A stretch of 63,946 nt of DNA, the filler included, from an uncultured Methanoregulaceae archaeon (lineage in GTDB: Archaea; Halobacteriota; Methanomicrobia; Methanomicrobiales; Methanospirillaceae): the NCBI GenBank assembly GCA_964530035.1. It is 4 parts of 4 records of this genome, joined end to end, with 100 filler letters (N's around TTAATTAATTAA, not from the genome) between each part and the next. Parts side by side here need not be neighbours in the genome. Positions count along the whole stretch, not along the records: positions 1 to 18,275 come from CAZGXZ010000033.1; 3 more parts are not named here. One strand, written 5' to 3'. The notes below the pieces were generated by a model that was not told the DNA's origin, did not search any database, and saw nothing but the letters and a program-made list of their open reading frames with translations. Of this stretch, positions 1-18,275 are shown piece by piece (position 1 is the first letter of the stretch; the number at the start of each line of letters is the position of its first letter). Made by a program: the position numbers and the translations under genes.

Positions 1-1
1 A

Positions 2-412
2 CTACGGGCAGCGGAGATCGGCATTCCTGAGCGAATTACTGTTGAAAATAATCTCTCCGGTCTTTTCATCTATGCAGACCCTCTTCTAGAGCGGGTATTT
101 TATAATCTTATAGATAATGCCCTCCGGCATGGGGGCCCAACCCTTTCGCATATCCGGTTTTCATGGCACTATGTAGATAATGAGGTGTGCATCTGGTGCG
201 ATGACGACGGTCAGGGTATCCCGGATGATCTCAAGGAGAGGATATTTGATCGGGGATATGGTAGTAATACAGGTCTTGGCTTGTTCCTTGTCAGGGAGAT
301 CTTATCAATTACCGGAATTCGTATCACCGAGATCGGTACCTCTGGCAAAGGCGCACGATTTGAGATCAGAATACCTTTCGGTGGATATTCTGAAAAATCA
401 CAAAATGAATAA
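2..412 (+). CDS. Sensor histidine kinase, C-terminal HATPase domain (5'-truncated by window edge)
   Basis: Open frame from position 2 reads ADPLLERVFYNLIDNALRHG (N box), DDDGQGI (G1), GLGLFLVREIL (G2); similar to the C-terminus of the kinase at 28133-29860. Confidence 0.9.
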   Translation, partial: LRAAEIGIPERITVENNLSGLFIYADPLLERVFYNLIDNALRHGGPTLSHIRFSWHYVDNEVCIWCDDDGQGIPDDLKERIFDRGYGSNTGLGLFLVREILSITGIRITEIGTSGKGARFEIRIPFGGYSEKSQNE

Positions 413-417
413 AAGAA

Positions 418-490
418 CGCCCAGATCGGAATTCGAATCCGAGTCGTCGGCGTGACAGGCCGACATGATAGGCCACTACACTACCTGGGC
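418..490 (-). tRNA. tRNA-Asp(GTC)
   Basis: Reverse complement folds as a cloverleaf: GCCCAGG/TCTGGGC acceptor stem, anticodon loop CT-GTC-AC, T-loop TTCGAAT. Confidence 0.95.
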
Positions 491-503
491 ACATGGTGAA
501 AGA

Positions 504-609
504 TCCCGCCTCCCGGATTCGAACCGGGGACATCGCGGTAGCCGCGCAGTTACCTGAAACGGTAATCCATACTACAGCCGCGCACTCTACCAGTCTGAGT
601 TAAGGCGGG
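504..609 (-). tRNA. tRNA-Tyr(GTA) with 32-nt intron at canonical 37/38 position (intron 540-571)
   Basis: CCCGCCT/AGGCGGG acceptor stem, CGCGG-CTGTAG|intron|A-CCGCG anticodon arm with bulge-helix-bulge-like junctions, GTTCGAATC T-loop. Confidence 0.93.
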
Positions 610-685
610 TTCTTGCCCTATGATATTAGAGAAGTCTCTTCATAAATATATCGATATCACGGCTCGATTCACCTGCACGGAGTGG

Positions 686-693
686 TTTAAATA
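686..693 (+). promoter_or_regulatory. TATA box for the leuA transcript (predicted start ~716-717, leaderless)
   Basis: TTTAAATA about 24 nt upstream of ATG 717. Confidence 0.6.
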
Positions 694-716
694 ATCAAAG
701 CGCCCACGATCCTATC

Positions 717-764
717 ATGTCACGCATGACGAGCCAGTCAGCGGGGAGCTGTCTTCTTCACTGA
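717..764 (+). other. Leader ORF MSRMTSQSAGSCLLH* overlapping leuA out of frame; candidate +1 frameshift cassette (GGGGAG-CTGT-CTT-CTT-CAC-TGA)
   Basis: ATG 717 and ATG 726 share a frame that ends at TGA 762-764 after tandem CTT Leu codons (753-758); the leuA frame is +1 relative to it. Confidence 0.65.
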
Positions 765-2274
765 CAGCTTTGCGAAGGAAAAGATCACTGTTTTCGACAC
801 GACCCTGCGAGATGGAGAACAAACGCCGGGTGTATCATTCCAGTTGGAACAAAAAATCGAGATTGCCAGACAGCTCTCTCTAATCGGCGTGAGTACGATC
901 GAGGCAGGGTTCCCCGCATCCTCATCTGCAGAGCGCGACACCGTACGAGCCATCGCTGGACTGTCCCTTGACTCGGCAGTCTGCGGCCTCGCCCGATCAG
1001 TCAGGTCGGATATCGATACGTGCCTCGACTGCGACGTCGACATGGTCCATGTCTTTATCCCTACATCGGATGTCCAGAGAGTCCATACCATCCAGAAAAG
1101 CCGTGAGGAGGTCCTCGATATTACCAGTTCTGTTGTTGGGCATGTCAGGGACCATCTTGGTTCCTGTATGTTCTCGGCAATGGACGCAACAAGGACCGAT
1201 GGTGATTACCTCATCGAGGTCTTCAGAGCTGCCGCTGAAGCCGGGGCGACTATTATCAACGTCCCGGATACGGTCGGGGTCATGGCACCGAGTGGAGTAA
1301 AAGCGCTGATCAGGAGGATTGCCAGGGAGGTCGATTGCCCCATTGACATCCATTGCCATAACGATTTCGGGCTCGCCGTTGCCAATACCGTAACCGCGGT
1401 CGAGGCTGGCGCCTCGCAGGTTCAGGTGACCGTGAACGGGATCGGAGAACGGGCAGGCAATGCCGACCTTGCGCAGACGGTCATGATCCTGGAGTCGATC
1501 TACGGGATAGGGACGGGCATAGTAAAAGAAAAACTTGTAGAAACGTCCCGTCTTATATCGCGATACTCAGGGATCGGTATCTCGCCCTGCCAGCCAATCG
1601 CCGGAGAAAATGCCTTCGCCCATGAAAGTGGCATCCATTCTCATGGAGTCCTGGCCTGTGCCGAGACATTCGAGCCCGGGATCATGACCCCTGAGATGGT
1701 CGGCCACAGGCGGAGGCTCACCCTGGGTAAACATGTCGGAAGGCACGCGGTTCGCCAGATGCTGACTGATGTCCATTTAAAACCGGATGATGCCCAGTTG
1801 GACACGATAGTTGAGCGGATAAAGCATATCGCAAGCAAGGGCAAACGGATGACAGACGGCGACCTGTACGAAATCGCCGAAAGCGTTCTTGGAATTGACA
1901 CGGGAAAAGCGGTTATCAGCCTGGGCAACATCGCCATCATGACCGGATCCGATGTAATTCCTACGGCGAGCGTAAAGGCCCTCGTCAACGGGGTCGAGCA
2001 TGTGTATTCGAGCACCGGGACAGGCCCGGTTGACGCGGCCATCAAAGCGATCATGGGGATCATGCCGATGGACATCCAGCTGAAGGAGTTCAACATCGAG
2101 GCGATATCCGGCGGATCGGATGCAATTGGTCATGTAACGATTGCAGTCGAAGATGGAAAGGGCAGGGTGTTCGGGGCGAGCGCATCAGGAGACGATGTGG
2201 TCCTTGCCTCTGCCGAGGCGGTTATTAACGCAATAAATCTTTTCTACAGGGTGTATGAAGAGAAAAAGGAATAG
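717..2274 (+). CDS. leuA: 2-isopropylmalate synthase (needs a +1 shift near 753-759, or has a 1-nt error; the track start at TTG 844 is too far downstream)
   Basis: DTTLRDGEQTPG (from 796) is in frame upstream of 844; EAGFP, CGLAR, INVPDTVG, HCHNDFG, GIGERAGN, HESGIH and the C-terminal allosteric domain (IMTGSDVIPTASV, GPVDAA) fit the MJ1195/LeuA type better than CimA. Confidence 0.85.
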
Positions 2275-2278
2275 GTGT

Positions 2279-2638
2279 TCAGGCAGCAGGCTGTGATTTC
2301 CCTTCAATAGCCTGCTTCACCTGTGCCTGGAGCTGTTCGAACTTTTCCTGGAGCATCTTCTCCTGCTTTTCAAGAGATTTTATCCTGATCTCCAGTGTTT
2401 CTACTTTCTCATTCAAGACTCCGGTGACGGTTTCCCGGTCTTTCTCCACCATGACCGTGCCAACGGTCATGTAGAGGGCGCGTCCTTCGGGCAGGTCCTT
2501 TATCTCTTCAAGAGCCCGGTTAGCTTCCCGTACTGCCATTTCATACTGGGTCTTCTGCGAGAGAATATTCTGCATCTGCTGCTGCATCTGCTGGAGCATC
2601 GCAATCTGGTTCTGGACCTTGGGAGGGATCTGGTTCAT
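2279..2638 (-). CDS. pfdB: Prefoldin subunit beta
   Basis: Coiled-coil Q/E-rich protein with YMTVGTVMVE hairpin; conserved position at the end of the proteasome superoperon. Confidence 0.92.
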   Translation of the reverse strand: MNQIPPKVQNQIAMLQQMQQQMQNILSQKTQYEMAVREANRALEEIKDLPEGRALYMTVGTVMVEKDRETVTGVLNEKVETLEIRIKSLEKQEKMLQEKFEQLQAQVKQAIEGKSQPAA

Positions 2639-2660
2639 TGATGGTACTTCCTATGCGGGA

Positions 2661-2942
2661 TCAGGTATGATGGCTGACTATATCATGCATCTCTTCTGAA
2701 ACCCCTGCAAGTCGCAGCCACAGGTTCAGGGATGCCCGAAGGGCAGGGATATCAGTGGCGCTGATTTCGATGACGACACGGTCAACACCCTGGATTGTAC
2801 AGCAGATATGTGAGCGGCACTGGTCGTCATTCTCTATCTCAGGCAGCAGGGCCTGTACTATTACAGGGGCTGCTGATGTCATGATCTCGAATTCTGCCCG
2901 ATGATTCAGGGATTTTTCATTCCCATGCATCTGAACCCGCAT
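2661..2942 (-). CDS. pcc1: KEOPS complex subunit Pcc1 (start uncertain)
   Basis: ISATDIPALRASLNLWLRL motif; synteny between rpo12 and pfdB. Confidence 0.85.
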   Translation of the reverse strand: MRVQMHGNEKSLNHRAEFEIMTSAAPVIVQALLPEIENDDQCRSHICCTIQGVDRVVIEISATDIPALRASLNLWLRLAGVSEEMHDIVSHHT

Positions 2943-3023
2943 TCATATACCCATGATTTGCCTTTTCCGGCAGGGTTTCATGGAGAAAAAAGAAACTTTG
3001 CAAGAAGGAGACAGGGGGATACC

Positions 3024-3158
3024 CTATCGTGCCCTGAGGTCCTTGGTCGCAGCACCGCGCTCCTTGAAAAGAATGCGGTGACCGCAGTACGGGCAACGGA
3101 CATTGATATCTATCTCGACCTTCTGTTTGCACCTGGCGCACTTGTACGAACCCGCCAT
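3024..3158 (-). CDS. rpo12: RNA polymerase subunit P/Rpo12 (44 aa, absent from ORF track)
   Basis: Manual translation [44 protein letters not shown]; zinc ribbon, synteny after rpl37ae. Confidence 0.95.
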
Positions 3159-3163
3159 CCTTT

Positions 3164-3457
3164 TTACAGAGCCCCTTTCTCCTCGCTCCGTTCAATTGTA
3201 CGGATCGCAACCCTCAGGTTGGGAGTCTCAGGGACATATGCTCCGCCTGCAAATTTATAACCACATTTTCTGCAGGCCCAGATGCCAGTCCCTTCACGCC
3301 TGACGGCCTTCACATCACACTTGGGGCAGATATGGGCAGCCCTGGACACACTTTCAATTTCCTTGACTCTTTTTCTGATGAAACGCCCATACCTGGCACC
3401 GAAACGTCCGGCGCTCCCAACGACCTTGCCCTTTGCCCTGGACTTTGATTTGTTCAT
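3164..3457 (-). CDS. rpl37ae: 50S ribosomal protein L37Ae (eL43)
   Basis: [26 protein letters not shown] motifs. Confidence 0.97.
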
Positions 3458-3497
3458 ATTGTATCCTCTGAAAGCCCTTTATAATAGTCCTTTGATC

Positions 3498-4202
3498 CTA
3501 ATATACTTGATTGAGAATCTTCACTTCGCCGGTACCACGGGTAACGCGGTTGACCTGATCTATGAACTCGCCCTGCATCCCTGCTGGAATTTTAACGATA
3601 CATATCCATGAGCCGTCATTCTGCCATTCATCCTTCTCCATCATACCCCCAAGCTGCAGCTCCCCATATGCACGGGCAGCATGATCAGGGGAGATTTTTA
3701 CAGCGATTCTCACTTCCTCGAAACGGATGGGAATGAGTGGACGCAGGGCCTTCATGGTCTCCTTGACCAGCTCATCAACGTGTTTAAACGGGTCGATATT
3801 CACCCTCGCCTCTTCCATGGCCATTTCTATCCGTTGCGGCGGATGAGGGAGCCCGGTCTGCGGATTGACGGCATGACGGGAGATAAAGGTGATGACCTGT
3901 CGCTTTTTCGAGGCGATCATCATCTTCCGCTGCTCGGATGTCAGGTGAATCTCGCCCTTTTCGATAATCTTTCTCGCGATCGTCTCGAAATCAACGGTAT
4001 GAAAAGCTTTTATCAGGCTTTCATCAGGTGACCGGCTCGCATGGGAGGCATTATCAAAAATATGGAGAGCGGCCACGGCATCCTCGACCGGGATCTGCTC
4101 ACCCTTCCGGATTTTTGCTGCGAGATCAGGATCCACCAGGATCTCGAACCGCTCCCCATGGCTCTCGAGTCGTGCCGTGACTGCCTTGTCGAGGGGGATC
4201 AT
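3498..4202 (-). CDS. Ribosome maturation factor SBDS/Sdo1
   Basis: GERFEILVDP, NPQTGLPHPPQRIE, IPIRFE motifs. Confidence 0.95.
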   Translation of the reverse strand: MIPLDKAVTARLESHGERFEILVDPDLAAKIRKGEQIPVEDAVAALHIFDNASHASRSPDESLIKAFHTVDFETIARKIIEKGEIHLTSEQRKMMIASKKRQVITFISRHAVNPQTGLPHPPQRIEMAMEEARVNIDPFKHVDELVKETMKALRPLIPIRFEEVRIAVKISPDHAARAYGELQLGGMMEKDEWQNDGSWICIVKIPAGMQGEFIDQVNRVTRGTGEVKILNQVY

Positions 4203-4227
4203 CTTAGTTTCCTTTTACAATCAGGAC

Positions 4228-4947
4228 TTATCCAGACTGGTCAACAAACGATGCAACTTCTTCCTTGCTCATCTTCCGGAAGACCGGGTTCTCAAGTTCA
4301 ATAATACCGATCTCCACGGTATTGACATCGAACTTGCCCTCTGTAGCATCATGAAGCGCCTTTAATCCAAGTGCAATGCTCTCCCGGACTGATGCCTCCG
4401 GAGAATACTCCTCCTCAAAAACCTTCATAACGGCGGTCCGGCCGATGCCAATGCCCGTAGCCTTGTATTCAAGGAGTGTTCCACTCGGGTCCGTTTCAAA
4501 AAGGCGGCACTCACCATCACTTATGCCGGCGATGAGAAGGGCCGTACCATACGGACGGGCACCCCCGAACTGTGTGTAGGTCTGCATATGGTCACAGAGC
4601 TTCTTGGCAAGAGCTTCAACATCGATCTGTTCATCGTATGAAACCCGGTTGATCTGGCTTTCCACTCTTGCACGGTCAACGAGGGCTCTCGCATCCCCTA
4701 CCAGTCCTGATGACGCGACACCAATGTGCTCGTCTATCATGAATATCTTCTCGATGGAAGATGCTTCCAGCAGCCTGGAGGTGACACGCTTGTCCACGAT
4801 AAGGACGACACCTTCACGGCATTTGATACCGACAGCGGTCGTACCCCGTTTAACGGCTTCCCTGGCATATTCTACCTGGTACAGCCTGCCATCGGGACTG
4901 AAGACCGTTATTGCACGATCATACCCCATCTGATATTGTGGTTGCAT
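4228..4947 (-). CDS. psmA: Proteasome subunit alpha
   Basis: [21 protein letters not shown] signature. Confidence 0.98.
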
Positions 4948-5432
4948 TATGCTCCATCTACCTCATGGGTGGTTATAAAACGTAATTCCTTTGGTCCGGT
5001 ATCATCGTCAGGGATATCGATGCGACCCTCTGAATCAGAAAGCCCGGTCACCACAGTCCCGGATATCCGGACTTCTTTTTGGGTCAATAACGGCGGAAGA
5101 TGTACTGACACGTACTGTTTTAACGTCTTTATTGTCCCTGATGTCCTGACAGGGCGAAGTCTAGTCTTTTTTCCGTTGATCTCGATAATTGTCTGTAAAA
5201 CTACGGTCAGATCCTCCTCTCCACCCCGTATACAACGAACAATGAGAAAACCCGGTGACATCTGGATGACGACAGGCTGGATCTCAGAAGTCCTTGCATC
5301 ACCGAACCATCCCCGGGAGACATCATTGATTGCATAATATACATCCTTCGGGTCAATGGATTCCCAGGCAGGAAATACCTGGCAGAGGATGTACCGGTGG
5401 TTATCCCGGAGGGAGGGCAGCAGGATTTTCAT
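4947..5432 (-). CDS. rnp2: RNase P protein Pop5/Rpp14
   Basis: [11 protein letters not shown] and RTSGTIK motifs; synteny. Confidence 0.88.
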
Positions 5433-6076
5433 GAAATTACCCTCACAGGGCTTTCATGAGTCAGGACCCGTTCTGGTGAATTCAGGGCGGCGATTGTCTC
5501 CTGATGGCTCATCCCAAAAAGGCTGCAGATAGCAGCCATATCTTCAGGTGAGCGCATTTCAAGCCAAGACCAGGCATTTGACGAAACAGTGAGCAGGAAG
5601 CCGTATTTTCGATGGAGTGCCAGGATATCACGGTATGTCTTGAGGACTTTCTGACGGTGGTGCCCGGAGGTTACCAGGAGGGGCCTGATGTCAATATCGA
5701 TAGCTACCCCCCTTTCGCAGGCTATCCGTGCAGATACGTGGTCAAATGACGGTTTTTGAGACTTGTGGAGATGGCGGAGCACGTCCAGCCCTGGAAAACC
5801 CAGGACACCGCGATTGAATGCCACGTCCCGTGCATTAACCATAATAACAGGCCGGATATCTGACTCGCATGCCTTCCGGATTACCCTGGTAGCTCCTTTC
5901 AGGGTTTGTTCCCGGATTATGACTGCGGGGGTGATTTCCACTCCTGCGAACCTGCCGGCCTCTCCTGCGGTTGAGAGGAGTCTGTCGAATCCCATGGATG
6001 ACGCTTCAAGGGCAAACCTGGAAAGGCTGGTATCCCCACCCGGATACGGGTGGACCGTTGCGTCTGTCGCGGTCAT
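5429..6076 (-). CDS. rnp3: RNase P protein Rpp30
   Basis: FDHVSARIA, VSSNA..EMRSP motifs; synteny. Confidence 0.88.
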   Translation of the reverse strand: MTATDATVHPYPGGDTSLSRFALEASSMGFDRLLSTAGEAGRFAGVEITPAVIIREQTLKGATRVIRKACESDIRPVIMVNARDVAFNRGVLGFPGLDVLRHLHKSQKPSFDHVSARIACERGVAIDIDIRPLLVTSGHHRQKVLKTYRDILALHRKYGFLLTVSSNAWSWLEMRSPEDMAAICSLFGMSHQETIAALNSPERVLTHESPVRVIS

Positions 6077-6090
6077 CCGCGAAAAAAAGG

Positions 6091-6681
6091 TTATTTCCCC
6101 CGGTTTGCATTGGACCGGATGCTCGGGCGTGTCTTCTCGGTACCACGGCCGCGGTATCTCATGCCACGCCCCTTAATACCGGCGCTGGTCTTGCCACGCT
6201 CGGCCCGGCCACGGTGGACTGAACTGCATATCCATGAGAGAGTCCGGTCTGATGAAATGCCCGGGTGATGTGGGTCCACAAGGATTATTTCATACCACTT
6301 CGAACGGCCGTCCTGGCCTACCCAGTAGGAGTTCAGGACTTCCATGTTAGGGTAGCGCCGGGATGCCCGTTCTTCGGCAATCCTCTGGATGCTTTTACCG
6401 GGTGTGAGCCGGCTCATACCCATGTTTGCAGACCTGCGGGCTCGGACGTAGCGTGATGCGCGCCTGCCACCCCTGCGTACTGCCGCCCGGACAACAATAA
6501 TTCCCTGCTTTGCCTTGTAGCCAAGCTCGCGGGCCCGGTCAATCCGGGTGGGGTGTTCCACACGGACTACGCTGCCCTCACGCCGCCAGACCTGCATGCG
6601 TTCCCACTGGAGCGCCTTTACCCCGGTTTCGTCAGGTTTTTTCCAAGCCTCCCTGACATAGGCATACATTGATCGTGCCAT
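6091..6681 (-). CDS. rpl15e: 50S ribosomal protein L15e (likely start MARSMY at 6681)
   Basis: [32 protein letters not shown] motifs. Confidence 0.97.
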
Positions 6682-6689
6682 TGTTTGTA

Positions 6690-6748
6690 TCACCACGAAG
6701 GTTCAGCCGGTAACGGCCACATTCCTGACAGGACGGATCCTGTGTGGC
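6690..6748 (-). ncRNA. Structured 5' leader of rpl15e (resembles the eL15-Euryarchaeota ribosomal leader)
   Basis: GCCACA/TGTGGC stem enclosing a CAGGA/TCCTG hairpin, then GGCTGAACC next to the GGTGA SD; TTTAAG TATA-like box upstream. Confidence 0.6.
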
Positions 6749-6777
6749 GTATAGATTCTCTTTTCATGTGCTTAAAC

Positions 6778-7261
6778 TCACCTGTCCGGCTGGTCCCCCT
6801 TGACTTTCCTGACAACATGGATCCCTTCAATCCGGGTTACTGGGTACTGGCCTGACCGGTCCTTCTCGGCTGATTTCACCATATCCCATATCGTGAGGAG
6901 TGCAACAGACACTCCTGTCAGAGCTTCCATCTCGACCCCGGTCTTGCCTTTGCTNNNNNNNNNNGGTCACCATTGCATCTATATAGTGGTCTTCCAGGTC
7001 GAAGTCAACCAGGATACCATGGACCGGGATTCCATGGCACATCGGAATAATTCCGGGGGTGTTCTTGACCGCAAGGGTCGCTGCAACCCGTGCGGTCGCG
7101 AGGACGTTTCCTTTCACAGCCGTGCCCTCGCGTATCGAGCGCATTGTCTCCTCTTTGAGGATGATGCGGCCGGCGGCCATTGCCTCGCGCCTGACCTCCG
7201 CCTTGTCACCTACATCGACCATCCGTACTGCATCGCCGGTTACATGGGTAAATTCAGTCAC
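6778..7261 (-). CDS. moaC: Cyclic pyranopterin monophosphate synthase (spans a 10-N gap)
   Basis: FTHV, MVDVGDK, KGNVL, IPMCH before the gap; [26 protein letters not shown] after it; GTG start overlaps the nnr stop. Confidence 0.93.
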
Positions 7262-8678
7262 GATCGCACCGTCCATATAAGATGCCCGGAAGTATATTGA
7301 GGAGATCGCTTGCCAGGATTCCCTCGCGACCATTCATTGCAGCCACCTCTCCTGCCCTGCCGTTGACGTAGGCTGCGATATAAGCAGATTCGAACCCGGG
7401 GAGCCTGCAGAAAAGAGCCCCTGCCACACCCGCAAGGACATCCCCTGTGCCCCCAACAGTCATCGCCGGGCAGCCCGAGCTGTTGAACTTCACCCTCGTC
7501 CCGTCAGAAATGACATCAATAGCACCCTTGAGCAGAATAACTCCGTTGTTCACATCCTGTGAAGCCTTCCTGGCGGCGAGGGCACGTTCAATTGGATCTC
7601 GTGGGGCAGAAGACCCGGTCATCCGGGCAAACTCTCCGCCATGGGGCGTATATATTGCCGATTCTGAAACAGGGAGAGGATTGTCAAGTGCATCGGCATC
7701 GAAAACGGCTTTTCTGCACTCAGGTGCGATATCCCTGATGACCGAACGTGCCCCCGGACCAGCCCCGTTCCCAAAAACCACCACATCAGAATTCCGGATA
7801 AGGGATACGAGGAGGTCTTTATGCTCATCTCCTATGGTATCTCCCGGGAGGGGATCATGGATGACATCTAGCCATTGTTGTCTGACGGGTGACGCAACCC
7901 GTACGAGGTCGGCGCCTGCCCTGAGGGCGGCGAGGGCTGACAGGTACGGGGCTCCCTGGTATGGTCCTCCCCCGATAACAAGGACTTTTCCACCGGCCCC
8001 CTTGCGGGCATCAGCCGCCCGCCTCGGGACAAGCAGGAGATCCCCCTCACCCGCAACAATATCGGCTGCAAGAGGGATGCCTATGTCGGCGACAACAGAT
8101 CCTTCCATTTTCGGGCGGTGAAACGCAAGGATGCGGGAGGGATGGATACCAGGTGTTGGTACATCGGCAGAGAGTACTGGCACACCCGATCCATTTGCCT
8201 CCCGGACCATCGCGGCAAGAGGTTCATTTACAGGACCTTGTACCCCTGTACCGAGTATGGCATCTATTATGAGATCTGCGCTGGTGAAACGGTCATGAAG
8301 AAAGGTGACTTCATCCGGGGTCTTCACAGGGATAAGGGTGACATCGCATCCCTTCAGGAGCCCGAGATTGCCGAGTGCCAGCTCTGAAGACCCCGGTCCT
8401 TCATGATAACATACGGTAACATCAGCAGATGATGAAAGATATCGCGCTGCAACAAATCCGTCCCCCCCGTTGTTTCCCCGCCCACACAGGACGAGAGTCC
8501 GTGATGAGCCCATTGATACAGCTTCACGGGCGAGGGCATGGCCCGCGGACTCCATGAGCCTGTCCGCAGGCAAGCCTAGTTTCGCGGCGTTTCTTTCAAT
8601 CACGCGCATTTTCTCAGCGGTGACAAGGCCGCTTTCCTTAAAAATATGTGCTCCATGGATCCAATAGCGCGATTCCAT
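7254..8678 (-). CDS. nnr: Bifunctional NAD(P)H-hydrate epimerase/dehydratase
   Basis: LMESAG, CGRGNNGGDG, DAILGTG (YjeF_N); TPHGGEF, GGTGDVLAG (carbohydrate kinase-like). Confidence 0.93.
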   Translation of the reverse strand: MESRYWIHGAHIFKESGLVTAEKMRVIERNAAKLGLPADRLMESAGHALAREAVSMGSSRTLVLCGRGNNGGDGFVAARYLSSSADVTVCYHEGPGSSELALGNLGLLKGCDVTLIPVKTPDEVTFLHDRFTSADLIIDAILGTGVQGPVNEPLAAMVREANGSGVPVLSADVPTPGIHPSRILAFHRPKMEGSVVADIGIPLAADIVAGEGDLLLVPRRAADARKGAGGKVLVIGGGPYQGAPYLSALAALRAGADLVRVASPVRQQWLDVIHDPLPGDTIGDEHKDLLVSLIRNSDVVVFGNGAGPGARSVIRDIAPECRKAVFDADALDNPLPVSESAIYTPHGGEFARMTGSSAPRDPIERALAARKASQDVNNGVILLKGAIDVISDGTRVKFNSSGCPAMTVGGTGDVLAGVAGALFCRLPGFESAYIAAYVNGRAGEVAAMNGREGILASDLLNILPGILYGRCDRD

Positions 8679-8798
8679 GCAGATCTCCTTCCCTGTAATG
8701 GGTACTGGTATGTAACTCCATATTGCCTTTTGCCGGAAGAGCGTCGGGCAGCCTTACAATCCACGAGTTATTTCCCTCTGTATGACCAACCGACAGGC

Positions 8799-10196
8799 AT
8801 GGGATTCCATGCGGATATCTGCAGAGGGATCAGGCGTCTCACAGAGGCAGGTGCTGTGACGGTCATCTCTCATATTGATGCCGATGGCATCGCATCGGAG
8901 GCGATCCTCAGTGAAGCCTGTTCGCGGGCAGGTATCCCGAACCGTTCAGTTTTTATCCGCCAGCTGGAACCACTTACAATCGGACTTGTCCCGCGGGACG
9001 GGAGCCTCAAGGTCTTTACCGATCTTGGCGCGGGACAGCAGCAGCTCCTTGCTGAAAATGGTTTTTCCGAGGACGAGGTCCTCATTATTGACCACCATGT
9101 GGGCCAGGAGGGGGATGTCCCCTACCTGCAGGTAAACTGCCTTCCCCACGGATATGGCAAGATGAGCGCTGCGGGAGTCTCGTATTTTATCGCAAAGGGC
9201 ATGGATCCAAGGAATACCGACCTGGCGAAGGTGGCCGTCGTGGGAAATGTCGGGGACATGATGGCCCGGGAGGACCTGGGCCTGGTCGGGCCGGCCCGCG
9301 AGATCGTTGCGGATGGAGAGCGGCGGGGAGATATCCTGGTCGAGGGCAAGAACCTGAACGCCTATGGTATCTCGACCAGACCGGTCCATATCTGCCTGGC
9401 CTATTGCGATGACCCATTTATCCCGGGGATCAGCAATAATATCCAGACTGCACTGAGATTCCTCGAAAACCTCGGGGTTCCGGTCCGTGACCGTGACGGG
9501 AGGTGGCTTGTATGGGAGGACCTGCCCAGGGAGGCACGGATACAGGTCATAAGCGCCCTCGTCGAACAACTCACTTCTCACGGGGAGCCACCGGACAGGC
9601 TCCTGGCCGAGACCTATACTTTTCCCGGTGAAATCCCGAAATCACCGGTTAGAAACGCCTCCGAGTTCGCAACGGTACTCAATGCATGCGGCAGGTGGTC
9701 AAAGCCAGCCATCGGCTCGGCAATATGCCGGGGACAAAGGGGTGAGGCACTCAGGGACGCAGAGCACATGCTGACAAACCACAGGGCGGTCATCAGGGAT
9801 CTGCTGCAGTATATCCTCGAAACGGGCGTGGTCGAGCTTTCACACCTCCAGTACATGCATGTCGGGAGCCGGTACCCGGACACGGTGGTCGGTATCGGGG
9901 CAGGAATGGCACTCAACAGGCTAAACTGGGAAAAACCGGTCCTTATCATGTGTGATCTCCCCCTTGAACCTGCTGTCACGAAAATTTCGATGAGGACGAA
10001 CGAACGCATGGTCAGGAAGGGTATAGATCTCCAGCAGGTACTGACCGTGGCATCCAGGGAAATAGGTGGCGCCGGGGGGGGGCACCGGATCGCCGCCGGC
10101 GCCTATATTCCGAAGGAAAGAGAACAATGGTTTGTCAACCGTGTCAATGAGTTACTCAGCGAACAGTCTCCTCCGCCGGCTCCAGGTCATTGCTGA
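8799..10196 (+). CDS. DHH/DHHA1 phosphoesterase, RecJ-like (GAN/Cdc45-related) nuclease
   Basis: SHIDADG, TDLG, IDHH, GGGHRIAAGA motifs; likely start ATG 8799. Confidence 0.9.
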   Translation: MGFHADICRGIRRLTEAGAVTVISHIDADGIASEAILSEACSRAGIPNRSVFIRQLEPLTIGLVPRDGSLKVFTDLGAGQQQLLAENGFSEDEVLIIDHHVGQEGDVPYLQVNCLPHGYGKMSAAGVSYFIAKGMDPRNTDLAKVAVVGNVGDMMAREDLGLVGPAREIVADGERRGDILVEGKNLNAYGISTRPVHICLAYCDDPFIPGISNNIQTALRFLENLGVPVRDRDGRWLVWEDLPREARIQVISALVEQLTSHGEPPDRLLAETYTFPGEIPKSPVRNASEFATVLNACGRWSKPAIGSAICRGQRGEALRDAEHMLTNHRAVIRDLLQYILETGVVELSHLQYMHVGSRYPDTVVGIGAGMALNRLNWEKPVLIMCDLPLEPAVTKISMRTNERMVRKGIDLQQVLTVASREIGGAGGGHRIAAGAYIPKEREQWFVNRVNELLSEQSPPPAPGHC

Positions 10197-10620
10197 TTTC
10201 CAGTTTGGCAGGGATGTCGGGACGAATCTTCTGCCAGAGGGCTGTACATTCATTCTTGCGAGGTCAGGTCAGCCGCGGCAGGTCCTGCTCGACGGAAAAA
10301 GACTTGCTACGCTCCGGGCATCGGACGGCAGGCTGACCCTCGGAATCGAGGGTGCCATGCGCCTCCACGATATTCTCAGCCCGCCTTCCTACCGCGTCGT
10401 GATACAGGAGGACGTGGCAGCCTACATCATGCGCGGTAAAAACGCATTCGCCCGGCATGTTGTATCCGCAGACGGATCCATCAGGGCAGGGGACGAGGTA
10501 ATTGTCGTCGGAGAGAATGACAGGATCCTCGGGACCGGCAGTGCAGTCCTCTCAGGAACGGAGATGATGGCCTTTAAGTCAGGTGTTGCCGTACTGGTAC
10601 GGCAGGGAACAGAACCATGA
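10147..10620 (+). CDS. PUA-domain protein (C-terminal part of a split archaeosine tRNA-guanine transglycosylase)
   Basis: IADFQFG, RLATLRASDG, GKNAFARHV, IRAGDEV, GVAVLVR. Confidence 0.8.
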   Translation: MSYSANSLLRRLQVIADFQFGRDVGTNLLPEGCTFILARSGQPRQVLLDGKRLATLRASDGRLTLGIEGAMRLHDILSPPSYRVVIQEDVAAYIMRGKNAFARHVVSADGSIRAGDEVIVVGENDRILGTGSAVLSGTEMMAFKSGVAVLVRQGTEP

Positions 10621-10955
10621 TGCCAGGAAACATGAACCCCAAGCGAATGAAGCAGATGATGAAGCAACTTGGCATGGAAGTTGCACCCATTGAAGACGTC
10701 ACATCAATCGTAATATCGACACCCAAAGGGGACTATGTATTCGATACGGCTGAAGTCACTGCCATGACGATGCAGGGCATCACGACCTACCAGATCGCCG
10801 GAACACCCCGCTTCAGGGAGGCTGCCGCCGTGATACCAGAGGAGGACATCGCCATGGTCGCAGAACAGGCGCAGGTAAGCCCTGATGATGCAAAGACCGC
10901 CCTCGTTGAGACGAAGGGGGATATTGCAGAAGCCATTCTCAGACTCGCGAAATGA
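10617..10955 (+). CDS. nac: Nascent polypeptide-associated complex protein
   Basis: MNPKRMKQMMKQLG N-terminus; UBA-like C-terminus GDIAEAI. Confidence 0.95.
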   Translation: MMPGNMNPKRMKQMMKQLGMEVAPIEDVTSIVISTPKGDYVFDTAEVTAMTMQGITTYQIAGTPRFREAAAVIPEEDIAMVAEQAQVSPDDAKTALVETKGDIAEAILRLAK

Positions 10956-11689
10956 TAACGCGGTGTATTGGGGAAGGAGACCGGCTTGTCATCACCGGGG
11001 AAAGCCGGACCTACTTTGTTAAGGCGGGGTCACCGCCACTGTCGACCGACCTGGGAATCATTGACCTGAAGGGGGTCATCGGGGCTCCGTTTGGTTCGAC
11101 CATCAAAAGTCACAAGGGGGTGTCCTTTACGATACGGCAACCCCGTCCAACGGACTATTTTTCCCATTCCCGGCGCACAGGTGCACCCATGCTCCCGAAA
11201 GACATAGGGATGGTCATAGGGTTTACCGGAATGAACAGGTCCGACAGGGTGCTTGATGCCGGGACAGGTAGCGGAATCGCTGCGATCTACTATGGAGGAA
11301 TAGCCGCACGCGTGGAGAGTTACGAACACAGGGAGTCTTTCGCACGGGCTGCGGCAGAAAACATCGCAGAGGCAGGTCTTGATAATGTGGAAGTCATACA
11401 CGGTGATGTCCTCAGTGCTGAAGGGACCTACGATATCGTCCACCTTGACATGCACATCGGTCCTGAGCATGTCAGGCTTGCGTCGGACCTCCTCGTACCC
11501 GGGGGGTACCTTGCATGTTATACCCCCTTCCTCGAACAGACCTTTACGGTATATGATACCGCGTGTGATCGCTTTAGTGAGGTGTCAATCCATGAATGCA
11601 TTGAGAGGGAGCTCACCAGGTCCGACCGTGGGACCCGGCCATCAACCAGGGTAGGTCACAGCGGGTATATCACCATAGCCCGGAAGTAG
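10952..11689 (+). CDS. trmI: tRNA (adenine57/58-N1)-methyltransferase
   Basis: PKDIG, VLDAGTGSG, RPSTRVGHSGYI motifs. Confidence 0.88.
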   Translation: MITRCIGEGDRLVITGESRTYFVKAGSPPLSTDLGIIDLKGVIGAPFGSTIKSHKGVSFTIRQPRPTDYFSHSRRTGAPMLPKDIGMVIGFTGMNRSDRVLDAGTGSGIAAIYYGGIAARVESYEHRESFARAAAENIAEAGLDNVEVIHGDVLSAEGTYDIVHLDMHIGPEHVRLASDLLVPGGYLACYTPFLEQTFTVYDTACDRFSEVSIHECIERELTRSDRGTRPSTRVGHSGYITIARK

Positions 11690-12066
11690 GGGAACCAGAT
11701 GGACATATCCAACAGTATACTCCCTGGGGCGGACAATACACGTCACTACAGGAGGAAAACGTGTTCCTCTGCAGGACAGGGATACGGGGTCTTCACTACA
11801 GACCCCGCCGTGGAAAAAGCGTCGTTACCCGGGGTTTTTGCCTATTTGGGGCATGAAACAGAAAAGTCATTGGTACAGGGAATGCCCGGGGCCACGGGAT
11901 TCATGCGGGACTGCTTATATAGTTTGACGAAATCAACCCCACCGGGCAGTAATGACAAAATATCCGGTTTTTTAGCGTTTTCCAATTACAGGACATATCC
12001 CGGTTTATTTTCCAAACGAGTGATGAATAATGATTTTTTCTTCTGAATTGTGCAGGATTAAGAGAG

Positions 12067-12079
12067 AAAGTTTATTAAG
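12067..12079 (+). promoter_or_regulatory. BRE-TATA promoter for the sheath-like gene
   Basis: Purine-rich BRE followed by TTTATTAA; AGGAGG SD at ~12131 before ATG 12143. Confidence 0.6.
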
Positions 12080-12142
12080 GGTCAGTAACTAAAAACAATG
12101 GTTGATGCTGAGAGTATCAGCATGAATTGTAGGAGGAAAATA

Positions 12143-12973
12143 ATGAAGTCAAACGGATTTGTAGGTGTCGCACTCATCTCAATGGCAGTGCTGGTTGCAT
12201 TCACCGGCTTTGCCATGGCTGACCGACTCCCCAACGCGACTCCTGAAAACCAGGTCTTCTCTGTGACCTCGGCTGTCGAGGCAATTGGAACCTATGCTGG
12301 CTCCCAGTCGCTCCAGTGGACCCTGAACGGACCCATGTATGCAGGCCTTCACACCGGTATCCTTAGGGCCGATGAAGTAAGAGCCACCACGGCATACTCC
12401 GAGTCAACCGAGACCAACGGTGGATACGCGTCTGAGACCAAGACGTTCGCGATGGACACCAGGAACAAGGCACTCGACCTGTTCAACGTCGAGACCTCGA
12501 AGACCTTCACGTACGCAACCGATGCAAACACCGGCAGTGTCGCCCAGACCTCTGAAATGATTGCAATCGACCTCATGGGCAACTCGACCCTGACGTCTGA
12601 TGTCATTGCATGTCCGTTCGGACCTTCTGTCAGCGAGTACTACCCCGCATTCTGTAACGTAGTCTACGCCAAGTCGATGAGCCAGGGTGTTACCTCGGCA
12701 GCAATGTCCAGCACCGCTCAGACCAGGACTGTTGCAGCAACCGCTGATGTCGGAAGCGCACTGAACTACAACTTCGATGTCAAGCCTGATGCATCTGCAG
12801 GTGTTGGCTACGCGATGGGTACCTTCGGCACTGAGTTCGGTGTCTCGATCAAGGAAGCCCGCGGCAACAACATGACGCCTTCACAGACCGTTGTCTACAC
12901 TGACAAGGCAACTGTTGCAGGCATGGTCGCGAAGTTCAACAAGCAGTACGCTTACAAGGGCTTCTTCGGCTGA
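12143..12973 (+). CDS. Secreted beta-rich protein, Methanospirillum MspA/SH-like sheath protein (paralog 1)
   Basis: Signal peptide ending FTGFAMA-D, NATPENQ, DTRNK, CPF-x(9)-FCNVV, AATADV, terminal YTDKATVAG..FNKQYAY; T/S/A-rich; strong codon bias. Family recognised from recalled MspA motifs. Confidence 0.7.
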   Translation: MKSNGFVGVALISMAVLVAFTGFAMADRLPNATPENQVFSVTSAVEAIGTYAGSQSLQWTLNGPMYAGLHTGILRADEVRATTAYSESTETNGGYASETKTFAMDTRNKALDLFNVETSKTFTYATDANTGSVAQTSEMIAIDLMGNSTLTSDVIACPFGPSVSEYYPAFCNVVYAKSMSQGVTSAAMSSTAQTRTVAATADVGSALNYNFDVKPDASAGVGYAMGTFGTEFGVSIKEARGNNMTPSQTVVYTDKATVAGMVAKFNKQYAYKGFFG

Positions 12974-12974
12974 A

Positions 12975-13017
12975 TAGGATCGGGGAGTTAATCCCTACTC
13001 CAAATTTTTTCCCTTTT
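12975..13017 (+). terminator. Hairpin plus oligo-T terminator after sheath gene 1
   Basis: TAGGAT..ATCCCTA / GGAGT..ACTCC pairing followed by T runs. Confidence 0.5.
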
Positions 13018-13190
13018 GCTGTTTTAAACCTGAAGTTCATCAGATCGTTTTAAACTGTTTTAAACCCTTATTCTGCAAAAACAATTGATTTTAGGCCCTT
13101 TCCAAGAGGCTTCGCCGACCCACATATAACAAAGTATATTACCAAGGGTAGCGTATGGGTAGTTGTTCAACCCAACGCAGTGAGGGTGAT

Positions 13191-14012
13191 ATGGTTATGG
13201 GAAAGGTTGTACGGTTAGCTATGTCAGTAGCGTCAATGCTACTTGTTCTTGGGATGGTCTGGGGTGTTTCAGCGGTACGTCCGATTCCGGGCGGAGCAGA
13301 ACATTCCGGTTTATCCACGATAGTCGACGGGTATTGTGAAGGCACGACCATTGTCAACACGGACCTGAGTTATGGCAGCTCCAATGAAGACCTCAACAAT
13401 GGAGCCGCACTGGCAACAGGCGAGGTCATGGGAACGATAGGGTACCGCCAGAATGTGCTTGCCCAGAACGGGACCACCGACTATGTGCGTAGTCTCGAGC
13501 TGGACACCCGGAACGCTACCGCGGGTAACAGAAACCTTGAGGTCCAGAATGCAATCTCCTACCTTGCAAATGGAACCGGCTCCATGGTGTACAGTGAGGC
13601 TGTAGCACTCGATATTTATGCCAACAGTACGACCGACAGCAGTATCAGCTGCCCGTTCGGGCCGAACCCTGCCGAAGTCCCGGCATCCCATGCAAGCATC
13701 GTGGCGGGAAGCGATATGATCGGGGTCAAGGAAGTAGCCCTGAACACGGAGTCAGGAGCTACATCGACGGCTGCATCGCTCGATGTGCCGGTAAGCCTGA
13801 CGTACAACTTCGATGCACAGGGTATTCCTGGCGTTGGTGGCGATGCCCTTGCCGAGGGTTCGGCAACGGTGTACATGACCGCATCAGTCGAGGGTGGCAA
13901 TGGCATGGGTAACGCTACGGGCACCCACATCGAGTACAATGATGTGACGCATGTAGACGGTCTCTTCGACCTCGCGAAACAGATGGGATACAGTTCCACA
14001 TCTGTCGTCTAA
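13191..14012 (+). CDS. Secreted MspA/SH-like sheath protein (paralog 2)
   Basis: Signal peptide; LDTRN, CPFGP, DVPVSLTYNFD, terminal YNDVTHVDGLFDLAKQMGY are collinear with paralog 1. Confidence 0.68.
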   Translation: MVMGKVVRLAMSVASMLLVLGMVWGVSAVRPIPGGAEHSGLSTIVDGYCEGTTIVNTDLSYGSSNEDLNNGAALATGEVMGTIGYRQNVLAQNGTTDYVRSLELDTRNATAGNRNLEVQNAISYLANGTGSMVYSEAVALDIYANSTTDSSISCPFGPNPAEVPASHASIVAGSDMIGVKEVALNTESGATSTAASLDVPVSLTYNFDAQGIPGVGGDALAEGSATVYMTASVEGGNGMGNATGTHIEYNDVTHVDGLFDLAKQMGYSSTSVV

Positions 14013-14856
14013 ATATTTTTTCTCTTTTCCGGTAGGATTACAGGGACCTCTGAACATATTGTTGCGTTGTCAGGGGAGGTGCATTCTCTCGGCCAAGCGG
14101 AGATAGTTATAAAAATCACCTTTATTCCCGCTGAGGCCAGAACAGAAAAAATTTGCCAGAAAACCCATTCCTGCCCGGCGTCGAGGCTGAAAAACCAGGA
14201 AAAACAGCGTTCCGCTGCAAAATGAACTGGGAACCCCTTCTCCAGCAGGGTCACCCCGAAAATCCCAGGTTTTGGATCTCCCGGAATATCCAGACCATAT
14301 TGAGAGGATAGTCCAGGGTTCTCTGTTGATGGAGTCTTTACAACCACCCGGTTTGCCTGAGTTATCGCTTCGTCTCTTTGAATCGGGGATTCTGTGGCGG
14401 AGAGGTATTTCCATAACTGTTCTCAGGTTATACCCTGTTTCTCTTGGGATTTGTCCAAGGTCATCCCCTAATGAAAAAGATCTCCTATCATCAGAACGGT
14501 CTCCACTTACGGCATTGCCACTAACCTTCACGTTACTACCTGAAGGTTGTCAGCCGGGCACTCTTATCCCGCCGAAAGTGAGGAGAAGTATCCTGGTGGG
14601 GACAGTGATGGTGAAATGATTTCAAGATACCATAGGATACTCTGATTCGCAGCGTGAGGGTGATTCCATCCCCGTTCTCTGCAACTAGAGAGGGCAACCA
14701 GCCCTTCGGGAGCATCTCATCATGCCTGCAAATGCTGGTTGGAAGGTCCTTTATTACGGAGAGATGCTTATTTTAATAGCCCTTCATACCAGGGGAATAA
14801 CAGGTGAAAAGGATCCGCAATAAGGGAATCAATGAAGGAATAAAAAAGATTAAACC

Positions 14857-15324
14857 TTATTTGGTTTTTACGCTATACGCTTGGCCAAACGAGGATGTAA
14901 AGGTACCAGCAATCGAGATACCGAAATCCCTTCCACTGGGACTGAATTTTACCCAAGGCCTGTCACTTCCGCTCTGGCTGAAAAGCTTGTTGTCCCAGAC
15001 AATTCCACCTGCCGAAGAGATATCGGATGGGAATCCTTTCGCATAATCATCGCTGGTGTATACCTTAACATCTGCCGCATTACTCGGAATAATACCGGCA
15101 CCGGTTGTGCTCCCCGACGTAGGGTAGTAGTATTTGGTTGTGTTACCAAATTTCGTCTTGGAAAGCCAGTCAGCGCTGTAAACATTATCTTTAACCGTGG
15201 ATTTCGCCGTGGTCGCACTCCCGAACTTCAGCGAAAGGGTCTGTGAAAATGCAGCTGTAGCCAGGCCGGCAAAGCACAGCGTCAGCACAAGAATGATTGC
15301 AATGAAGCGAACTAATCTGCTCAT
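14857..15324 (-). CDS. Secreted S/T/G-rich hypothetical protein
   Basis: GGAGGTG SD, Sec signal peptide (LATAA), beta-strand-like composition. Confidence 0.75.
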   Translation of the reverse strand: MSRLVRFIAIILVLTLCFAGLATAAFSQTLSLKFGSATTAKSTVKDNVYSADWLSKTKFGNTTKYYYPTSGSTTGAGIIPSNAADVKVYTSDDYAKGFPSDISSAGGIVWDNKLFSQSGSDRPWVKFSPSGRDFGISIAGTFTSSFGQAYSVKTK

Positions 15325-15712
15325 ATCACACCTCCCCGTGTACAGGGATATAATGAGTATTCATCCATATCACAAATAAATATTGGCATTTTTTGCGAAT
15401 GGAGACAGAGAAATCAGATGAAGATCGGGAGGAGAAAACCTGTAACCGCCTTTTATTCGAATTGTTTCCGAGGAGGCATTTTCATTATCCCTTACTGTGT
15501 TAAATAAACCCCGTCTTTTCAACCATATACAAAAAATGACGGATGATTTATCACTTCACCATATCGTATAAAGAAAAATGGGGGTATCCAAACGAAAATA
15601 TTCTCTGCTTAACCGGATGGTATGAACACCTTGAAAAGCGAGGAGGGTTTTCCAGGCGACTCCTCTCCTCATGATGTGTCAATAAAAATGGTTGAGCAGA
15701 AATTAAGAATTT

Positions 15713-16105
15713 TTACCAGCTGTTCGTATAGATAACCGCCGGTACATTTCCAAGGTCGATAAACCCATAGGAGTATGTCTTCGACATGCGGAACGTTCCA
15801 TTCAAAGCCGCCTTGTCAAGATAACTATTCTTGAACCATCCATAGTCATTCATGAGGTCAAACGTAATCCTGCTGTTCCCTGTGACGCCGGTGCTGCCGG
15901 ACGGGAGCTTGACCCCGCCTATCTGGAGAGGTTCACTCACCGCTGCAGGGTACAGAGAGGACCCCTTTTTAACCAGCGACTTGAAATTCCCTGAACCAAA
16001 GTCCTTTGCTGCAAAAACGGGTGATGCTATCAATACGAGTACTAACACCGCAGCAACAAACATGATCCCTGCATGATAGGGATAGGGGCGCACTGGTGAT
16101 TTCAT
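15713..16105 (-). CDS. Small secreted protein with a sheath-protein-like C-terminal motif
   Basis: Signal peptide (SPVFA); YLDKAALNGTFRMSKTYSY aligns with the C-termini of both sheath-like genes. Confidence 0.72.
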   Translation of the reverse strand: MKSPVRPYPYHAGIMFVAAVLVLVLIASPVFAAKDFGSGNFKSLVKKGSSLYPAAVSEPLQIGGVKLPSGSTGVTGNSRITFDLMNDYGWFKNSYLDKAALNGTFRMSKTYSYGFIDLGNVPAVIYTNSW

Positions 16106-16251
16106 TGAATAACGTATAGTGTGGTCTACACCGGAGATAAGGTTTCTTCCTTAGTAACTCCCTGTTCCTGCTCCCTCATGTCTGCCGTCATGACGAATGG
16201 TTTCATACCTTTCAGGAACTATTTATTGAATCGGAATTAAAAGTACAGGCC

Positions 16252-18048: not shown

Positions 18049-18057
18049 GACGGGGGT

Positions 18058-18273
18058 TCAACCCGTCCAGAAATGTTCATACCCCTTTTTTTCCAGGTAT
18101 TCTCCATCCACGAGCACCCTTTCCTCTTCAATAACACTGCCTATCACGGCCATTCCCTCCAACAGATGCTTCTCACGGCCTTGGGGGATTGTTGCGATGA
18201 GCTCGGAGTCCCCTCCACCAGGCAGTGTAAAGAGACGGGTCTCTTCCGTGGAAATACCTTCAGGACAAGGTAT
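18058..18273 (-). CDS. thiL: Thiamine-monophosphate kinase, C-terminal fragment (contig end)
   Basis: Manual translation ...GGGDSELIATIP...IGSV...VLVDGEYLEKKGYEHF resembles the ThiL GGGDYEL...GYxHF terminus. Confidence 0.7.
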   Translation of the reverse strand: MPCPEGISTEETRLFTLPGGGDSELIATIPQGREKHLLEGMAVIGSVIEEERVLVDGEYLEKKGYEHFWTG

Positions 18274-18275
18274 GG

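Follow-up and report, generated by a model that had tools for sequence, protein, structure and literature searches.

Regulatory +1 ribosomal frameshifts are known for release factor 2 and antizyme. The frameshift in bacterial prfB, the gene for release factor 2, is autoregulatory and takes place at CUU-UGA-C with a Shine-Dalgarno (SD)-like element upstream. Enterobacterial leuL and ilvL represent a further kind of control, the leader-peptide attenuator. In this study the 5′ end of leuA, the gene for 2-isopropylmalate synthase, the first enzyme of leucine synthesis, was analysed on a stretch of 63,946 nucleotides (nt) from an uncultured Methanoregulaceae archaeon (GenBank assembly GCA_964530035.1), hereafter the window. 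The catalytic motif of LeuA lies here upstream of the first canonical start codon of its frame, and a short open reading frame (ORF) one base behind that frame overlaps it. Judged from sequence comparison, expression of leuA probably depends on a programmed +1 ribosomal frameshift by which the supply of leucine is sensed.

Published work touches on such a device from several sides. The prfB frameshift is also described in PMC5009743, whose passages on +1 frameshifting at hungry sense codons cover yeast Ty1 (CUU-AGG-C) and Ty3 (GCG-AGU-U) and state that no hungry-codon frameshifting that yields functional trans-frame proteins is known. The antizyme (OAZ) +1 frameshift, which senses polyamines, is named in the 2021 review of archaeal recoding (PMC8211752), and its passage on cellular archaeal genes gives fucA1 (-1) as the only one for which a frameshift has been shown. 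Closest to the present case is the report of Pfeiffer and Dyall-Smith (2021; PMC8305020), where Haloferax volcanii leuA2 (HVO_1510) is listed as a start-codon problem with two alternatives, an in-frame CTG or an out-of-frame ATG that needs ribosomal slippage; peptides upstream of Met-93 are mentioned, and translation only in the absence of leucine is speculated upon. Neither a slip site nor invariance of the Leu codon is given in the leuA2 passages of that paper, which also mention neither methanogens nor a cimA or Ile counterpart; its supplement may say more. The gene belongs to the same orthologue group as the window leuA and shares its want of a reliable canonical start; the difference is that slippage is posed in those passages as an alternative to a CTG start, and for haloarchaea only. 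The first-pass annotation of the window had known of no described archaeal amino-acid-sensing frameshift of this kind. This has to be narrowed, since slippage had been speculated on for Haloferax leuA2 (PMC8305020). Our literature search for a description of a leuA or cimA frameshift found only that paper. In print, a frameshift governed by leucine supply is only hinted at.

Window positions 1-18,275 are contig C33 of a metagenome-assembled genome (MAG) of 229 contigs and 86% completeness, and all elements of the leuA 5′ end lie on its plus strand. A TATA box, TTTAAATA, occupies 686-693, 31 nt upstream of ATG 717. This ATG opens the 0-frame short ORF MSRMTSQSAGSCLLH-stop (717-764), in which another ATG occurs at 726 and TGA 762-764 is the stop. 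On its upstream side the leuA frame is bounded by TGA 727-729, and it has no ATG, GTG or TTG before TTG 844-846, its only canonical start, while the catalytic motif DTTLRDGEQ is located at 796-822. The junction reads, in order, an SD-like GGGGAG (743-748) 4 nt upstream of the proposed P-site codon, then CTGT, then the proposed slippery P-site codon CTT (Leu, 753-755; re-pairing on TTC 754-756), the proposed A-site sensor codon CTT (Leu, 756-758), CAC and TGA. The +1 frame reads TTC (754), TTC (757), ACT and GAC at the same place and belongs to a 514-codon open frame (730-2271); the part after the proposed shift (F-T-D-S-F-A-K-E-K-I-T-V-F-DTTLRDGEQ...) spans 757-2274 with its stop at 2272-2274. 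The first-pass annotation had described the motif ahead of TTG 844, the frame closed by TGA 727 and empty of starts, the TATA box with ATG 717 and its short ORF, and the junction with its +1 continuation into LeuA, and all of these descriptions agree with the sequence.

The window leuA frame scores 669.7 bits against the NCBIfam profile NF002085 (2-isopropylmalate synthase; cut-off 517). The domains PF00682 and PF08502, the latter being the C-terminal LeuA regulatory domain, are precomputed on orthologues of the window LeuA, and its group is named 2-isopropylmalate synthase by JGI, which is an annotation and not an assay. Gene callers use TTG 844, and the public product, P0122, has 476 amino acids and is missing the catalytic motif. 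Public gene calls for genes of this kind (P0122, P0123, P0126, P0003) are inconsistent; they are either shortened or read TTG, CTG or ATC as Met. A tRNA-Leu(GAG) was found in the window genome, in which CTT accounts for 22% of Leu codons. Only 25 tRNAs could be identified in the incomplete MAG, and tRNA-Phe was not among them.

Comparative analysis of related genomes revealed the same arrangement across a wide range of archaea. Among 41 related genomes representing six families of one order, all 41 have an orthologue, and in the stop-to-stop translation the matches begin at residues 3-7, before any start codon is reached. The 5′ ends were read in 30 loci and a same-genus genome, and then in 80 named loci from Methanoregula, Methanolinea, Methanoculleus, Methanocalculus and other Methanomicrobiales. 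All are alike: about 30 nt downstream of a TATA-like box stands a conserved (GT)ATG whose frame is one base behind that of leuA, and the short ORF of 10-18 codons reaches [Phe or Leu]-Leu, continues for 1-6 more codons and stops (for example MSPITKVAGNCFLHR). The nucleotide core Y-TTC-TY is near-invariant in this order. On a tree of 97 distinct sequences, core positions +1 to +5 underwent 0, 0, 1, 0 and 2 parsimony changes, against 7-30 for most flanking columns. The first base of the P-site codon is C or T in all 97 distinct Methanomicrobiales sequences. The Phe codon that overlaps the sensor is TTC in 96 of the 97 (TTC makes up 66% of Phe codons in the window genome), and the preceding Val or Ala codon has C or T as its last base in all 97, whereas genome-wide 36% of Val and 49% of Ala codons end in a purine. 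These choices in the leuA frame are what the 0 frame needs to read YTT-CTY.

The arrangement was also followed in a wider sample of 121 genomes of the phylum, where we define a cassette as a short ORF that opens with ATG, runs one base behind leuA and holds NUU followed by a Leu codon and, 0-9 codons on, by a stop. Cassettes were also found in families f7, f9, f10, f11, f14, f18, f19, f24, f13, f21, f22 and f25, the last four of which are probably haloarchaea with a more divergent LeuA. The form there is often starker, with a stop directly before the conserved block in the leuA frame (for example TGA GGG ATC G.T TTT TAC), and the 0-frame ORF may be as short as MRDRFL-stop. Anchoring on the leuA-frame protein block was applied to 159 leuA-type loci, drawn from Methanomicrobiales and from further orders of this phylum, and the cassette is present in 142 of them, one (L028) being assigned by eye. 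The other loci comprise two without the catalytic motif in the fetched stretch, two with too short an upstream sequence, 12 with an ordinary in-frame start (families f8, f12, f15, f16, f17, f20 and f23; among these L143 is a spurious anchor) and L088. In L088 the cassette is intact and an extra base occurs further downstream, about 20 nt before the catalytic motif, so that three frames are needed; this long-read MAG likely carries an assembly indel there.

The 142 cassettes represent 103 distinct leader peptides, with some genomes counted by two routes. The A-site codon is a Leu codon in every one of them (CTT 108, TTA 21, CTC 10, CTA 2, TTG 1), that is, five different codons that change between lineages across at least 18 families, while in the leuA frame the sensor position encodes F, Y, S, W or L. 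All 142 have TTT, CTT or GTT as P-site codon, with GTT confined to five loci (f13, f21, f22, f25). An ATG-led ORF in the 0 frame is likewise universal, its nearest ATG lying 4-24 codons before the P-site codon, as is the 0-frame stop 0-9 codons past the sensor. The leuA frame has no ATG, GTG or TTG before DTTLRDGEQ in 52 of the 142, and none upstream of the cassette in 76. On this sequence comparison, the feature is real, ancient and selected at the nucleotide level.

Two groups of leuA loci deserve separate mention. In family f16, loci L144 and L138 have ATG ATG or GTG starts in the leuA frame, yet retain an overlapping ORF with a Val-Leu pair (MRDDVLQQ-stop or MGECVLQRK-stop), and may represent an intermediate or decaying state of the device. 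The leuA leaders of Methanoculleus (L018, L020, L021 and the L073-L087 group) contain a direct repeat of about 18 nt, AACGCTGAAGC, present twice and giving MNPTNAEAPGNAEAYCLLHR; this repeat moves the slip site further from the ATG, to a distance of 16 codons.

A counterpart with a different sensor codon was identified on a paralogue. The second synthase of the window genome, on contig C169, is 45% identical and has no in-frame start. It carries the cassette ATG ACA GAT CGT TTT ATT CTC TGA (MTDRFIL-stop) at positions 1482-1505 of locus L002, which are not window coordinates, and its main frame is closed by a TGA that overlaps the 0-frame ATG. The group of this paralogue is named D-citramalate synthase (JGI) or putative CimA (UniRef), by annotation and not by assay. 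The paralogue also passes NF002085 (616 bits) and hits in the PDB do not separate LeuA from CimA; the two groups were told apart by source names. A cassette occurs in 47 of 68 cimA-type loci, and its A-site codon is Ile in 46 of these 47 (ATT 44; ATC 2, both in f24 loci). These comprise 34 loci with an ATG-led Phe-Ile cassette, three with a GTG-led Phe-Ile cassette (f10), eight with Ile-Ile, ATT-ATT (f7), and one, L199, assigned by eye. An ATT in the 0 frame means that the main-frame codon must be TTA, and TTA is found in all 20 Methanomicrobiales cimA loci, although it represents only 2.5% of Leu codons in the window genome. The third paralogue, of homocitrate-synthase type, has an ordinary ATG start (MKPWNVEICDVTLRDGEQ). 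Four of five loci of the haloarchaeal second paralogue were not readable with the anchor and were left unassigned. Leu on the leucine-pathway gene, Ile on the isoleucine-pathway gene and no device on the third paralogue, which lies outside amino-acid synthesis, together form the strongest argument, drawn from these alignments, that the codon would act as a sensor.

Analysis of the upstream region revealed a TATA-like octamer that starts 20-40 nt before the 0-frame ATG in 100 of 126 distinct cassette-bearing 5′ regions. The distance from box to ATG has its mode at 30 nt (53 of the 100) and is 29-32 nt in 79 of the 100; in the window it is 31 nt. Such a step from box to start site is that of archaeal promoter geometry. 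Because the box stands at a fixed distance, the mRNA is expected to begin with the 0-frame AUG or immediately beside it, and the TATA position in the window predicts a transcript that is leaderless or nearly so.

The SD-like element was assessed by its predicted pairing with the 3′ end of 16S rRNA, which was confirmed in four of five genomes. That of the window genome itself was not found, the only match there having 2 mismatches and probably not being rRNA. Positions 737-752 of the window form a predicted duplex of -7.3 kcal/mol. Over the 16 nt before the P site, cassettes average -7.9 kcal/mol against a coding background of -5.2 (standard deviation 2.55), and 92% of leuA cassettes fall below the background median and 33% below its 5th percentile. 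In family f9 the block differs in sequence and pairs better, at -12.5 kcal/mol. With moderate confidence, this pairing fits a stimulator like that of prfB. No conserved RNA structure was found at the site with RNAalifold (45 sequences, -0.17 kcal/mol, no helix), and the window's own fold has z = -0.65. A leader-peptide transcription attenuator was considered as well, and the alternative terminator and antiterminator hairpins it calls for were not found by RNAalifold after the leader ORF. An inverted repeat, AGCTGTC (747-753) and GACAGCT (763-769), would place the slip site in a hairpin loop; it occurs in this genus only, and the hairpin at 747-769 is not kept in relatives.

The following scheme infers where transcription begins, that the ribosome changes frame, exactly where it does so and that it responds to leucine. 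Transcription would start at or next to ATG 717, as suggested by the TATA box 31 nt upstream, and translation in the 0 frame would give M-S-R-M-T-S-Q-S-A-G-S-C-L, at which point CUU (753-755) would occupy the P site with another Leu codon, CUU (756-758), in the A site. With charged tRNA-Leu plentiful, the sensor would be read and translation would end at UGA 762, leaving a 15-residue peptide and no LeuA. With charged tRNA-Leu scarce, the A site would stay empty and the peptidyl-tRNA could re-pair in the +1 frame on UUC (754-756), or alternatively the next tRNA could bind out of frame. UUC (757-759, Phe) would then enter the A site and translation would proceed into LeuA, with a predicted junction ...A-G-S-C-L|F-T-D-S-F-A-K. 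The GGGGAG 4 nt upstream may aid the shift, as in prfB. Among the explanations weighed, a +1 shift at a hungry codon is the best supported, because the NUU-Leu pair is universal, Leu and Ile are specific to their pathways and an in-frame start is lacking in the window and many relatives.

Compared with prfB, the likenesses are a short 0-frame ORF preceding the main frame, a P-site CUU that would slip to UUN, an A-site codon whose slow decoding would report the supply of the pathway product and a putative SD-like stimulator a few bases upstream. A main ORF without a start that overlaps a started short ORF in the +1 frame was found in the window and in the 142 loci, and P-site re-pairing is available, from CTT to TTC in the window and from TTT or CTT to TTT or TTC across cassettes. 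The A site, in contrast, holds a Leu sense codon and not a stop read by the gene's own product. The leuA and cimA sensors are sense codons (Leu and Ile) in archaea, the quantity sensed would be charged tRNA in place of a release factor, and the leuA shift would lie 5-25 codons from a probably leaderless start. By this analogy the leuA device appears to work like prfB with a sense-codon sensor, and is not a member of the prfB type. With Ty1 and Ty3 it would share a slow sense codon in the A site that makes either the tRNA-Leu on P-site CUU slip by +1 or the incoming tRNA bind out of frame. In Ty elements, however, the codon is slow because its tRNA is rare, and the two products are formed in a fixed ratio, whereas the leuA sensor is an ordinary codon whose decoding would follow amino-acid supply. 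The antizyme frameshift is similarly both sensor and effector of a feedback loop on a metabolic pathway, but it is eukaryotic, uses a stop in the A site and senses a small molecule instead of charged tRNA. The attenuators leuL and ilvL resemble the leuA leader in having a short leader ORF with codons for the pathway's own amino acid, where ribosome speed sets, or in leuA would set, expression. Their output, unlike that proposed here, is transcription termination through alternative hairpins, while the leuA leader has no conserved RNA fold, carries one or two sensor codons and overlaps the coding sequence of the enzyme out of frame.

A broken gene and an altered message were among the explanations weighed. 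The genome is an incomplete MAG in many contigs, which is the ground for suspecting a pseudogene or an assembly error. Against this, the layout recurs in the 142 loci, single-contig genomes among them, and the same-genus genome G001 (locus L034) has the layout of the window; the 514-codon frame is intact and above the family cut-off; and positions 580-1360 show 0 differences and 0 gaps against contigs of two DNA runs from two studies, whose independent support is weak because each run carries a flag as a possible source of the window. Over 745-1043 the window is matched without a difference by a contig from an RNA library, at low depth and with DNA possibly present in that library; all four sequencing runs examined were available as contigs only. 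The comparative data across relatives settle the indel question, and a pseudogene or assembly error has a negligible probability: the layout is confirmed as neither chance nor assembly error. The first-pass annotation had called for a check for an indel at the slip region, and the identical contigs of the DNA runs and RNA library and the recurrence of the layout in relatives answer it. Slippage of RNA polymerase, or another change at the RNA level that removes one base and leaves the mRNA in frame, might be suggested by the runs of 5-6 T in outgroup cassettes. It is very improbable, since CTTCTTC, the sequence in the window and in most Methanomicrobiales, contains no homopolymer run and the same RNA-library contig equals the DNA.

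The remaining explanations concern where translation of LeuA begins, and several observations weigh against a leucine-governed shift at NUU-Leu. In 66 of the 142 loci an ATG, GTG or TTG of the leuA frame immediately precedes the cassette and the conserved block, many others have a CTG there, and internal initiation may serve or contribute in some lineages. LeuA could accordingly be initiated at a weak or non-canonical in-frame codon (CTG, ATC, ACG, or TTG or ATG where present), with the short ORF acting only as a regulatory leader; public proteins starting MRG.. (TTG), MWG.. (CTG) and MVLF.. (ATC) conform to this, and the NCBIfam profile begins about where that codon lies. We nevertheless regard such initiation as unlikely. 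The codon is CAG in the window and AAG, ACG, ACA, CCG, GAA or CGA in other loci, in families f7 and f14 the block follows immediately on a stop codon, with no conservation of a near-cognate codon; the constancy of Leu in leuA and Ile in cimA and the invariant TTC and TTA choices would also be left unexplained. Re-pairing is imperfect in the five haloarchaeal GTT loci (GUU to UUC, two of three pairs) and in cimA (UUU to UUA and AUU to UUA, two of three or worse). The SD-like signal is modest and, by eye, appears to be missing in Methanoculleus, where GCG TAC TGT precedes the slip site. Variation between the SD block and the slip site falls partly on third positions of the leuA frame (ATT/ATC, GGA/GGG/GGT), which would also fit a shift further upstream or the translation of both frames. 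A +1 shift at the G-rich block (GGG-A, GGG-G or AGG-G), constitutive or not governed by leucine, would agree with this third-position variation and with the conservative substitutions in leuA-frame G-I-V/A-F, and re-pairing from GGG to GGA or GGG, or from AGG to GGG, would be good. This placement is improbable, given that no such slippery codon is present in Methanoculleus, in the L009, L012 and L016 types (GGC) or in others, whereas the NUU-Leu pair is universal, and given that the Leu and Ile specificity would go unexplained. Codon-position periodicity was also tried as a means of placing the shift, and parsimony on the 97-sequence tree revealed no clear pattern; throughout the block from -12 to +6, constraint acts on each of the three codon positions. 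For its exact position the proposed shift accordingly relies on the universality of NUU-Leu. Further points to be set against the proposed shift are that one cimA-type gene (G032) has the Leu codon CTT in place of Ile, that the counts come from related genomes, some of which were fetched twice, and that no protein, ribosome-profiling or reporter evidence was found for this organism or any relative. The first-pass annotation had proposed to align relatives at this site; the out-of-frame ATG, the YTT-CTY pair and the stop of the 0 frame are all retained in them, many have no in-frame start, and each comparative test it put forward came out in favour of its leucine-codon frameshift, an interpretation that these alignments support. 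The Ile codon at the corresponding place in the isoleucine-pathway paralogue had not been anticipated there.

Beyond the window, it seems more plausible than otherwise that archaea of this phylum, namely Methanomicrobiales, related methanogen orders and haloarchaea, possess a modular sensor of charged tRNA, in which a short 0-frame ORF ends in NUU plus a sensor codon (Leu for leuA, Ile for cimA) and the +1 frame would be entered only when that codon is hungry. If true, this would be the first natural case in which hungry-codon frameshifting serves to make a functional protein and, among cellular archaeal genes, the first regulated +1 frameshift. It would be a very compact control of amino-acid synthesis, operating without a regulator protein or an RNA fold, and would explain the long-standing annotation problem of leuA and cimA genes. 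The model also suggests a portable, codon-programmable switch.

Two minor observations were made. The Leu-sensored cimA-type gene of G032 (L157 and L234, plus strand; one locus fetched twice) has the leader MSDYFLCR-stop and lies head to head with the leuA of that genome, which is itself Leu-sensored; its substrate or regulation may have changed. In the window, ARAGORN predicts a 95-nt tRNA-Gly with the odd anticodon ACC on the minus strand at 504-609, probably a mis-read intron-bearing tRNA, and all four runs cover bases 568-609 very deeply, leaving loose ends on both sides, as expected of a widely shared tRNA exon.

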